From NCBI RefSeq assembly GCF_056746865.1, contig NZ_CM163382.1: a stretch of 64,000 nucleotides of DNA; one strand, 5' to 3'. Positions within the stretch are counted from its first letter, which is position 1, and the number at the start of each line of letters is the position of its first letter. Position numbers: made by a program. Shown piece by piece: positions 1-3,000 of this stretch.

Positions 1-3000
1 GCTTTTTCTGCCTCAAGCAGGGGTAAGATATCATCTAAGGAATGCATTTCAGGCATCGATCCCATGACTGGTAGGGTGCTCATGAACCCCTCTTTCTGAA
101 GAGCCTTCACTTTTTCTAAATCATTTTTATAGAGATGTAGGCTGGATACAAAGTGATGATAGTGACCCAATTCGCATCCTATCAAGCGGGCAACTAATTC
201 CTGTAGCATCGTGAACGCAAATACATCATGAGGCAGCCCCATAAAGGCATCGTTAGAACGCATACAAACAAATAGATGCAGCTCTTCACATCTGACAATA
301 AACTGCATAGATATTGTACAAGGAATATCTACGTATTCTCGCTGTTCAGTTTTTGAGGGCACCAAGTCTGAGGCATCGAAAAGCTGTATTACTGCACGTC
401 TGGTAGGTTTTTTCTCCTGCAAAAGGTTGATAACATTTTTTAGCTGATTATATAAACCACGCATATTAAACAACCGTGGCCCGTAACCACCATGTATTTT
501 CCCATCTGACTCAGCGGATTCAGCGTAACGTGGTATGAAGTGTTTTATAAACTCAAGATCGTTCTGAGCTGAGAGATACCACAGAAATTCACCTAAGCAA
601 CTAATTAGTTTTCCTCGGGATTCTGTTCTACTTATTCTTCGGCGGGGGTCGGTAAGGACAAGATAGGCACCAAGAATCTCTAGAGTTGATCCTTTTGTAG
701 GATCGTTACTGAGTCCATCCGCTAGGATAGCTTGATGAACATCGTTTATCAGATCGTCAACACACTCAGCCGTTACCAAAAGAGTCATTTTCTACCTTTT
801 CCTGTATGGTAGTAACTAATCATTACCACCTGTATGGCATATAGTCAATATAGTATCAATATCAACATGGTTCACAGGGTAAGTAAGACTTGATCTTACC
901 CAGCAATAGTGGACACGCGGCTAAGTGAGTAAACTCTCAGTCAGAGGTGACTCACATGACAAAAACAGTATCAACCAGTAAAAACCCCGTAAACAGCATT
1001 CGCCTGAATTTCTCAGTGAAGCCCTGAAACTTGCTGAACGCATCGGTGTTGCTGCCGCAGCCCGTGAACTCAGCCTGTATGAATCACAGCTCTATGCGTG
1101 GCGCAGCAAACTGCAGCAACAAATGAGTTCGTCAGAGCGTGAAAGTGAACTGGCCGCTGAAAATGCCTGCCTGAAGCGGCAACTGGCGGAGCAGGCAGAG
1201 GAACTGGCTATCCTCCAAAAGGCCGCGACATACTTTGCGAATCGTCTGAAATGAAGTATGTCTTTATTGAAAAACATCAGGCTGAGTTCAGCATCAAAGC
1301 AATGTGCCGCGTGCTCCGGGTGGCCCGCAGCGGCTGGTATACGTGGTGTCAGCGGCGGACAAGGATAAGCACGCGTCAGCAGTTCCGCCAACACTGCGAC
1401 AGCGTTGTCCTCGCGGCTTTTACCCGGTCAAAACAGCGTTACGGTGCCCCACGCCTGACGGATGAACTGCGTGCTCAGGGTTACCCCTTTAACGTAAAAA
1501 CCGTGGCGGCAAGCCTGCGCCGTCAGGGACTGAGGGCAAAGGCCTCCCGGAAGTTCAGCCCGGTCAGCTACCGCGCACACGGCCTGCCTGTGTCAGAAAA
1601 TCTGTTGGAGCAGGATTTTTACGCCAGTGGCCCGAACCAGAAGTGGGCAGGAGACATCACGTACTTACGTACAGATGAAGGCTGGCTGTATCTGGCAGTG
1701 GTCATTGACCTGTGGTCACGTGCCGTTATTGGCTGGTCAATGTCGCCACGCATGACGGCGCAACTGGCCTGCGATGCCCTGCAGATGGCGCTGTGGCGGC
1801 GTAAGAGGCCCCGGAACGTTATCGTTCACACGGACCGTGGAGGCCAGTACTGTTCAGCAGATTATCAGGCGCAACTGAAGCGGCATAATCTGCGTGGAAG
1901 TATGAGCGCAAAAGGTTGCTGCTACGATAATGCCTGCGTGGAAAGCTTCTTTCATTCGCTGAAAGTGGAATGTATCCATGGAGAACACTTTATCAGCCGG
2001 GAAATAATGCGGGCAACGGTGTTTAATTATATCGAATGTGATTACAATCGGTGGCGGCGGCACAGTTGGTGTGGCGGCCTCAGTCCGGAACAATTTGAAA
2101 ACAAGAACCTCGCTTAGGCCTGTGTCCATATTACGTGGGTAGGATCACATAACCTGAAATGGCACTAATGGCCAGAGCTTACTAATACATAATCCCTACA
2201 GGATGTAGCCACCAGTTTTGTTCATCCGGTATTCTGATTTGGTAACATGCTCCAGAAAGGAAGAAATATGTACTGCAATGAATTAAAAGAATTTGCGCAA
2301 GAGCAGGAACAAAAACTTATCAGTGCGCTTGCTGATACCAGAGAGCACCCGTCCCCCGATGGTGAAACAAGAAGCCGGGATAATTATCAACGGGATTACG
2401 CGCGTATTCTGTATTCATCATCATTTCGCAGGCTGCAGGGAAAGATGCAACTTTTTGAAATTGATCCTGAAAAATTCAACAGAAACAGATTAACGCACAG
2501 TCTTGAGGTTGCTCAGATCGCCCGAAGTATCGCGTCAGACCTCAAACTGATTAACCCGGTGGTGGTTGAACTGGCAGCGCTGGCGCATGACATCGGAAAT
2601 CCTCCTTTCGGTCATTCCGGTGAAAAACTGCTTAATGAACTGTCTGAAGAAATCGGCGGCTATGAAGGTAATGCACAGGCGCTACGTATCCTGAGAAAAC
2701 TGGAGAAGAAATTTTCATACTGCAACGGATTAAATCTGACTCACCGTAGTTTACTTTCGGTTGTTAAGTATCCCATCCCCCGCGCTGCAGCTACTGCCGG
2801 CAAGTTCATTTATGATGATGATTACTATTTTTACATTAACCTGCTTGCTGAAAATCAGCTCGATCTGAATCCCGGAGAGAAAACGATTGATGCGCAGATA
2901 ATGGATCTCGCGGATGAGATTGCCTACGCCGCGCATGACCTGGAAGATGCCCTTAGCAGGAACATGGTCACGATTGAAGATATTGAATATGAGTTTCAGA

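Follow-up and report, generated by a model that had tools for sequence, protein, structure and literature searches.

Phage hypermodification of thymidine, as described for M6, ViI and PaMx11 (PDB 8z2m), combines a dUMP hydroxymethylase and the 5-HMUDK kinase with a clade-2 aGPT-Pplase or amino-acid:DNA transferase. The clade-2 enzyme gp51 of M6 requires a conserved Cys and a Glu close to it; an exocyclic methylene arises when the Cys attacks C6 of 5-phosphomethyl-dU in DNA, and the characterised clade-2 aGPT-Pplase enzymes need a 5-hydroxymethyl DNA kinase for activation of their substrate (PMC8989533). On the bacterial side, PD-lambda-2 is a validated abortive-infection system made up of a HigB-like component A, a HigA-Xre/peptidase component B that is toxic alone and rescued by A, and a P4-antitoxin-like component C (Vassallo et al., 2022, PMC9519451), whilst DS-4, a validated system of the DefensePredictor study, brings together a thymidylate synthase (TS), a dNMP kinase, a 5-hmdU DNA kinase, a TIR protein and a hypothetical protein (PMC13092281). 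Here we compare with these systems a gene for a TS-fold protein (the TS-like gene) that lies at the start of a stretch of 64,000 nt from an Escherichia coli genome (contig NZ_CM163382.1 of assembly GCF_056746865.1; the whole stretch is called the window below), together with the genes that travel with it. An IS3 copy and a stand-alone gene of the dGTPase type lie next to it in the window, and stand-alone dGTPases are a known kind of anti-phage nucleotide-depletion gene. The first definitions of aGPT-Pplase proteins and of nucleotide-centric conflict systems are reportedly those of Iyer 2013 and Burroughs 2015.

Conservation and genomic context of the cassette

The TS-like gene is almost certainly the first gene of a widespread, mobile four-gene cassette in which the dGTPase is not a partner. 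Scanning GTDB with a single genome for each species (100,044 species genomes) gave 151 confirmed relatives of the TS-like protein, and the best 80 of these 151 were examined at their loci, which span Proteobacteria, Bacteroidota, Actinobacteria, Chloroflexi, Acidobacteria, Planctomycetota and Verrucomicrobia; counts out of 80 refer to this sample throughout. The gene next after the TS-like gene encodes a protein of the aGPT-Pplase3 family (aGPT3) in 79 loci, and a convergent gene for an Xre-type helix-turn-helix (HTH)/M78 peptidase is found in 75, the misses being contig ends. Clustering of the neighbouring open reading frames (ORFs), with E. coli included, revealed a fourth core gene, for a protein of ~108 aa, which directly precedes the Xre-peptidase gene and overlaps it (76/81 loci). 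A dGTPase gene was found near the TS-like relatives at none of the 80 loci in other species. As a unit the cassette is previously uncharacterised, its domain families being already described and its TS-like protein already flagged by a machine-learning screen.

The window holds only part of the TS-like gene, an open frame of 262 codons with its ATG at 788-786 that runs off the window edge and matches Pfam Thymidylat_synt (PF00303, E 3.6e-25). The complete protein of 326 aa (WP_000174035.1, RefSeq name 'thymidylate synthase') was recovered from E. coli ECCNB12-2, whose record provides the L001 numbering used here, and places the 64 final codons and the remainder of the cassette beyond window position 1. 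The gene is present in 232 of 5426 complete E. coli genomes (~4%), where it is chromosomal and always in an island; the identity of the stretch reaches 100% and is at least 99% in 231 of the 232.

Several of the surroundings are those of defence genes. Three Serratia marcescens genomes carry the cassette in a P2 interval flanked by gpA (replication) and gpQ (portal), where it comprises the genes for the TS-like protein, aGPT3, the M78 peptidase, the 108-aa protein and an 87-aa MazG-like protein and is followed by HicAB; this gpA-gpQ hotspot has been shown to carry anti-phage systems (PMC9122126). The Pantoea dispersa cassette is flanked by hsdRMS and an integrase, and that of E. coli, situated in a degenerate pap island without phage genes, has a type I restriction-modification system (with an AAA ATPase) on one side and the dGTPase on the other. 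Ten plasmids also carry the cassette. WP_000174035.1 itself is listed as 'Predicted novel defense gene' with a mean log-odds of 7.6 in Table S10 of the DefensePredictor study (PMC13092281). The cassette is thus probably an anti-phage system.

Around the core genes the loci differ in the accessory genes listed in Table 1. The small MazG-like gene is divergent from the operon of the 108-aa and Xre-peptidase genes in all four enterobacterial genera, and longer MazG-like genes on the other strand occur in ~15 alphaproteobacterial loci. The DUF4031 protein may be a further accessory component.

Features of the encoded proteins

The closest solved relative of the TS-like protein by a wide margin is MilA, a CMP 5-hydroxymethylase (PDB 5b6d), which was found at E 6e-65 in a family profile search in which the top ordinary thymidylate synthase reached ~1e-26; as a single sequence the protein scores 145 bits against MilA and 47 bits against E. 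coli ThyA. The alignment to MilA runs through a C-terminal extension that ThyA does not have, and the TS tail is missing from the TS-like protein. It falls below the cut-off of every NCBIfam thymidylate-synthase equivalog (best 82 bits vs 327; TIGR03284, 62 vs 108), PADLOC, NCBIfam and PHROGs return nothing informative for it other than 'thymidylate synthase', and phage TS enzymes are at most ~30% identical to it.

Residues were mapped on the basis of the MilA paper (PMC5175136) and that on the ternary complex of T4 dCMP hydroxymethylase (T4dCH; PMC6400193). An Asp specifies cytosine, and an Arg and a Ser are determinants of a 2'-deoxy substrate (Zhao et al., 2016, PMC5175136); an Asp or Glu three positions upstream from the catalytic Cys (Cys-3) activates the substrate water (Park et al., 2019, PMC6400193), whereas the hydrophobic Leu143 of ThyA at this position permits hydride transfer (PMC6400193). 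In the TS-like family the cytosine position is Asp188 in 80/80 members (MilA Asp186, T4dCH Asp179), as opposed to the Asn of uracil users such as E. coli ThyA (Asn177), the M6 dUMP hydroxymethylase gp58 and the DS-4 TS. The two ribose determinants read as 2'-deoxy, with Ser178 in all 80 and Arg130 in 74, where deoxy users have Ser and Arg and the ribo-type MilA has Ala176 and Lys133. Cys-3 is Asp154 (T4dCH Asp145), the family having Asp or Glu here in 71 of 80 members, which fits water activation as in a hydroxymethylase. The catalytic Cys157 itself stands in 'DIPCTISMQF' (codon near window 318-320), with PCT invariant in the family, and C157, the general base Y102, E67 and the ribose-binding H218 and Y220, aligned to MilA, are likewise conserved in 80/80.

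Judged from its sequence, then, the TS-like protein is a pyrimidine hydroxymethylase-like enzyme of the MilA/T4 type and not a thymidylate synthase. Because of Asp188 for cytosine, Arg130 and Ser178 for deoxyribose and Asp154 at Cys-3, it is on balance predicted to be a dCMP C5-hydroxymethylase. An ordinary ThyA was rejected on the sub-cut-off scores, Asp188, the acidic residue at 154, the presence in only 4% of E. coli genomes and the MilA-like C-terminus. An earlier note on this stretch had described a partial TS-fold gene continuing past the window, with its catalytic Cys in a PCT context and low similarity to ThyA, and had suggested a divergent accessory enzyme, a dNMP hydroxymethylase or methyltransferase-like; the complete gene bears out the description and supports a divergent, mobile accessory enzyme of the dNMP-hydroxymethylase type, and the housekeeping ThyA orthologue named there as the counter-case does not agree with the scores or with an island-borne gene in 232/5426 genomes.

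The aGPT3 protein, translationally coupled to the TS-like protein, matches Pfam aGPT-Pplase3 (PF18746, 5.5e-90) and the amino-acid:DNA transferase family ADDT (PF18724, 1.1e-58), thus agreeing with the family profile, and has an HhH-glycosylase-like fold; its best structural match is a DNA-acting transferase. E296, D297, C300, N301, W302 and K304 are invariant, within the motif 'IEDALCNWQK' (E-x-x-x-C). The family numbers >4000 clusters at 90% identity, all of them single-domain, of ~310 aa and unnamed. PADLOC, NCBIfam and PHROGs gave no match for aGPT3, a profile search of PDB sequences with its alignment found nothing, and tblastn found 0 matches in 50,697 phage genomes.

In some cassettes a protein with a uracil-DNA glycosylase (UDG) fold is encoded between the TS-like protein and aGPT3. 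Pfam has no match for it as a single sequence, and the top matches of its predicted structure are all DNA glycosylases of the UDG superfamily, including TDG, MUG and SMUG, whose targets in DNA are 5-substituted pyrimidines. Its invariant G-[LI]-N-P-S motif resembles the catalytic motif of MUG, TDG and SMUG, G-[IM]-N-P-G.

The remaining two core proteins resemble the first two components of PD-lambda-2. The Xre-HTH/M78 peptidase (ImmA/IrrE-type, 360 aa) matches the PADLOC model PD-Lambda-2_B (PDLC03982) at 8.7e-30 over residues 15-341, and the 108-aa protein shows a HigB-like sequence pattern and is tentatively called HigB-like here. The E. coli 108-aa protein has no match in Pfam, PADLOC (including PD-Lambda-2_A), NCBIfam or PHROGs, a profile search of PDB sequences with its alignment gave nothing, and none of the cassette proteins matches component C. 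The gene of the 108-aa protein is absent from the E. coli RefSeq annotation and is reported by gene callers in Serratia and Pantoea.

The IS3 junction and the neighbouring dGTPase gene

The earlier note had paired the TS-like gene with the dGTPase-like gene as two divergently transcribed nucleotide enzymes ~200 bp apart before the IS3 insertion. The geometry is correct, the two starts (788 and 2268) being divergent and, by our computation, 222 bp apart once IS3 is taken out, and the dGTPase-like gene is real, with strong family scores (Table 1) and an alternative ATG upstream at 2247. The pairing itself does not stand. Besides the 0/80 co-occurrence, the Pantoea cassette, whose TS-like protein is 95% identical, has neither IS3 nor dGTPase, and in E. 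coli KOr019, which shares the cassette and the IS3, what follows IS3 on the right is a VENN-toxin fragment and arcA. Upstream of the TS-like gene, E. coli and Pantoea remain homologous (93%) up to exactly 890, the IS3 edge, and window positions 2148-3600 find no counterpart at the loci of Pantoea, Enterobacter, Serratia or E. coli KOr019. Because of these four observations (co-occurrence, Pantoea, KOr019 and the end of homology at IS3) a functional TS-dGTPase pair was rejected.

IS3 is flanked by 'act' and 'cat', so that there is no 3-bp target duplication; the earlier note had already remarked on this and on the adjacency being perhaps secondary, which the homology stop at 890 confirms. By sequence comparison IS3 is a breakpoint that joins the cassette to unrelated DNA, and the dGTPase, a defence gene in its own right, came to lie beside it through a rearrangement mediated by IS3. 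The order TS-IS3-dGTPase is found, at identities of at least 99%, in 185 of the 232 E. coli genomes with the TS-like gene, and this is consistent with the spread of one island rather than with independent association. As to the nucleotide-modifying or depleting module that the earlier note had envisaged, a modifying, defence-type module is very likely, and only the dGTPase drops out as a member.

Between the TS-like gene and IS3 a remnant of the native upstream region survives, with a predicted promoter whose hexamers lie in blocks identical across E. coli, Pantoea, Enterobacter and Serratia. The CCTGTATGG repeats around its -10 hexamer, of which both copies are conserved in Pantoea and only in part in Enterobacter, may form an operator, possibly for the Xre-peptidase.

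Table 1. Features of the window and of the cassette. Plain numbers are window positions; L-numbers refer to the records of E. coli ECCNB12-2 (L001), Serratia (L084, L085), Pantoea (L087) and other loci.
Feature	Position	Strand	Basis or remark
TS-like gene, 5' 80% (codons 1-262 of 326)	1-788	-	Translation; Pfam PF00303; full gene L001:14808-15788
aGPT-Pplase3 gene, 314 aa	L001:13867-14811		Pfam; RefSeq 'hypothetical'; 4-nt overlap (ATGA) with TS-like gene
HigB-like gene (putative), 108 aa	L001:12459-12785	+	TTG start; 4-nt overlap with Xre-peptidase gene; ~2.2 kb beyond window position 1
Remnant native upstream region of the cassette	789-890	-	93% identical to Pantoea L087 up to exactly 890
Predicted sigma-70 promoter of the TS-like/aGPT-Pplase3 operon	819-848	-	Consensus scan; -35 TTGACT 848-843, 18-nt spacer, -10 AATGAT 824-819
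Direct repeats CCTGTATGG	801-809 and 829-837		Flank the -10 hexamer
IS3 copy	891-2147	+	~96% identical to canonical IS3; transposase frameshifted
Stand-alone dGTPase-type gene (HD triphosphohydrolase)	2268-3500	+	PADLOC dGTPase 1.5e-109; TIGR01353 316 bits, above cut-off
UDG-fold gene, ~265 aa	Between TS-like gene and aGPT3		~34 loci (~40% of cassettes)
MazG-like NTP pyrophosphohydrolase genes			~17 loci, including E. coli, Enterobacter, Serratia and Pantoea
Small MazG-like protein, 87-88 aa	L001:12049-12315; L084:13478-13741; L087:11474-11740	- (L001)	PHROG 24212 (unknown function), 2.3e-37
DUF4031 gene	~100-400 bp upstream of TS-like gene	Same as TS-like gene	PF13223, 6.2e-27; 19 loci, including L021, L022, L023 and L007
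MutT-like Nudix gene			5 loci
Integrase genes			10 loci
HicA/HicB toxin-antitoxin pair	L084:14202-14797; L085:14203-14798		Directly beside the Serratia cassette
ORF of 127 aa with hydrophobic stretches	3543-3926	+	Downstream of dGTPase; overlaps truncated papA
Truncated papA	3843-4247	-	
ORF fitting an ISCR2 transposase fragment	5373-6026		Window's first 6 kb read
ISCR2 - floR - tet(A)/tetR - strAB - sul2 resistance region (expected)	~5360-14000		By correspondence with L001:20364-29022

Further into the window, pap regulatory genes come after the papA fragment, and these are what is left of a pap pathogenicity island.

Proposed mechanism and comparison with known systems

From the gene content, conservation, folds and residue patterns observed we infer the following course. 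The HigB-like/Xre-peptidase pair would keep the enzyme operon off, or its products inactive, until the cell is infected or its DNA damaged. The TS-like enzyme would then use methylene-tetrahydrofolate to convert dCMP to 5-hydroxymethyl-dCMP (hm-dCMP), and the MazG-like enzyme of the enterobacterial copies, or a Nudix enzyme elsewhere, may help by converting dCTP to dCMP. aGPT3, and the UDG-fold glycosylase where present, would act on the 5-hydroxymethylpyrimidine, either through attack of the Cys at C6 with an exocyclic-methylene intermediate or through base excision, and the site would most likely be replicating DNA, whereby phage replication would be blocked. A four-gene cassette working in this way, with the dGTPase independent of it, is the best overall explanation, to which we give a probability of roughly 0.55. 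That its enzymes act at the level of DNA is proposed more tentatively. A fuller version is doubtful, if attractive, namely that phage-type DNA hypermodification chemistry has been recruited as a bacterial immune weapon: upon infection the PD-lambda-2-like switch would release a dCMP hydroxymethylase whose product ends up in phage DNA during replication, possibly via the phage's own dNMP kinase, and the Cys-dependent aGPT3, with or without the TDG/SMUG-like glycosylase, would adduct, crosslink to or excise the 5-hydroxymethylcytosine, so that the phage genome is destroyed.

Several points weigh against the proposed mechanism. The hydroxymethylase signature of the TS-like protein is incomplete, the position two residues before the Tyr (Tyr-2; Ser94 in T4dCH) being Gly100 here and Gly in 74 and Ser in 5 of the 80 family members where Ser or Thr would be expected, so that a methyl or other C5 product is possible. 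The aGPT3 motif aligns with 'VETVLCKWKS' of M6 gp51, and the profile alignment is weak (probability 1.8%). Among the conserved neighbours there is no 5-hydroxymethyl DNA kinase, and the cassette contains no dNMP kinase that would take hm-dCMP to the triphosphate. The Pfam HigB model is reached by only 1 of 28 members of the 108-aa family (2.3e-4), and the defence context outside Enterobacterales consists of integrases and plasmids only. A literature search found no named TS plus aGPT system, no experiment and no mechanism for the cassette, and the aGPT-Pplase systems of DefensePredictor are predicted, not validated (PMC13092281). In the E. coli lineage of the window, moreover, with the IS3 edge 42 bp upstream of the -35 hexamer, IS3 might change how the TS-like operon is regulated.

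The same enzymes could be imagined to work on the nucleotide pool, the TS-like and MazG-like or Nudix proteins draining dCTP and dCMP into hm-dCMP and the aGPT3 and UDG-fold proteins acting on the nucleotide, as MilB and QNG1 do, to free 5-hydroxymethylcytosine, with depletion or a toxic antimetabolite stopping phage replication. We regard this as unlikely, given that the structural matches of aGPT3 and of the UDG-fold protein point to DNA-acting enzymes, the latter to glycosylases for 5-substituted pyrimidines in DNA, and that hydroxymethylation would be needlessly elaborate for mere depletion. The proposed defence against phages also has to be weighed against self-modification, in which the cassette would hypermodify the cytosines of its carrier prophage, island or plasmid against host restriction, a counter-defence of the kind that M6, ViI and PaMx11 achieve with thymidines. 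Relatives of aGPT-Pplase do exactly this in phages (PMC8989533), the cassette resides in P2-like prophages, integrase islands and ten plasmids, and regulators of the ImmA/IrrE-type Xre class are typical of mobile-element induction. The explanation is nevertheless improbable, because the 50,697 phage genomes hold no aGPT3 homologue, the best phage TS matches are only ~30% identical, there is no set of dCTPase plus kinase for full replacement of dC, the P2 site of the Serratia cassette is one where anti-phage systems have been demonstrated (PMC9122126), and the E. coli copy has survived in a degenerate island free of phage genes.

Still less probable is a cassette with no immune role, in which the HigB-like/Xre-peptidase pair would be a toxin-antitoxin stabiliser only and the TS-like protein and aGPT3 would make a secondary metabolite derived from pyrimidine, a precursor like those of bacimethrin or mildiomycin. 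Homology to MilA/BcmA-type enzymes fits this idea, as do the toxin-antitoxin-like architecture and the toxicity of the PD-lambda-2 Xre-peptidase on its own (PMC9519451); against it, Arg130 and Ser178 are of the deoxy type, where ribo-specific antibiotic enzymes have Lys and Ala, no tailoring or export genes occur among the conserved neighbours, and the four genes travel together across phyla and sit in defence hotspots. The divergent two-enzyme nucleotide-pool module of TS-like protein and dGTPase is very improbable. The two gene products are both nucleotide enzymes encoded 222 bp apart without IS3, and their order is kept in 185/232 E. coli genomes, an arrangement that looks like one clonal island (at least 99% identity in 231/232); the 0/80 count, the dGTPase-free Pantoea cassette, the differing right-hand flank of this IS3 in KOr019, the missing target duplication and the homology stop all speak against it. 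Least probable of all is an ordinary or spare thymidylate synthase, a ThyA paralogue supplying dTMP, as the RefSeq label and the presence of the TS fold with its catalytic Cys, Glu and Tyr would have it; the protein scores below every NCBIfam TS cut-off, has Asp in place of Asn177 and of Leu143 and a MilA-like extension in place of the TS tail, and its gene, found in 4% of E. coli genomes only, always travels with aGPT3.

With the proposed mechanism thus preferred, what follows from it can be stated conditionally. If the fuller version is true, the aGPT-Pplase proteins would have in aGPT3 a first member directed at cytosine, and defence by forced base modification would be a new effector principle. 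If the cassette is an immune system, the enzymes with which phages hypermodify themselves would also exist in a bacterial, cytosine-directed form aimed at invaders, their effector logic would stand beside nucleotide depletion and chain terminators, and a large family annotated only as hypothetical (>4000 aGPT-Pplase3 clusters; 151 TS-like sites) would gain a function. Enzymes that derivatise 5-hydroxymethylcytosine (5hmC) without a kinase step could serve in 5hmC mapping. The label 'thymidylate synthase' for the TS-like family is a systematic misannotation, which is corrected here, and the TS/dGTPase adjacency in the window is an IS3 artefact of island assembly and no functional unit.

Set beside the described systems, the cassette shares parts with each. 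With MilA and T4 gp42 the TS-like protein has in common the TS fold, a Cys in P/A-C-T context, Glu67, Tyr102, His218 and Tyr220, the Asp at the cytosine position with an acidic residue at Cys-3, and, in the case of MilA, the C-terminal extension; it differs from MilA in Arg130/Ser178 (deoxy-type, as in T4dCH) for Lys133/Ala176, and from both in the Gly that replaces Ser/Thr at Tyr-2, in lying in neither an antibiotic cluster nor a phage genome and in being coupled to aGPT-Pplase3 instead of MilB or T4 gp1/gp56. A prophage remnant of the phage thymidine-hypermodification pathway was considered and rejected: unlike that pathway, the cassette has an aGPT-Pplase of clade 3 and not clade 2, a TS of the cytosine and not the uracil type, and no DNA kinase, pyridoxal phosphate or radical-SAM partners, it is confined to bacterial chromosomes, islands and plasmids (0 in 50,697 phage genomes), and it stands under a HigB-like/Xre-peptidase pair.

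In DS-4, too, a TS-fold hydroxymethylase-like enzyme with Asp at Cys-3 forms the centre of the system, which defends E. coli against phages, and the general idea of making a modified pyrimidine nucleotide is the same, but its TS is 29% identical to WP_000174035.1 and uracil-type (Asn), and it has its own kinases and a TIR effector, with neither aGPT-Pplase nor Xre-peptidase. The stand-alone anti-phage dGTPases (Tal et al., 2022) are represented in the window by the gene at 2268-3500, a strong family match, yet this is a separate single-gene system without conserved linkage to the TS-like gene. With PD-lambda-2 the cassette shares a full-length homologue of B, ahead of which the operon encodes a small protein of HigB pattern that the PD-Lambda-2_A model does not detect; where PD-lambda-2 has component C, the cassette encodes two nucleotide- or DNA-modifying enzymes convergently instead.

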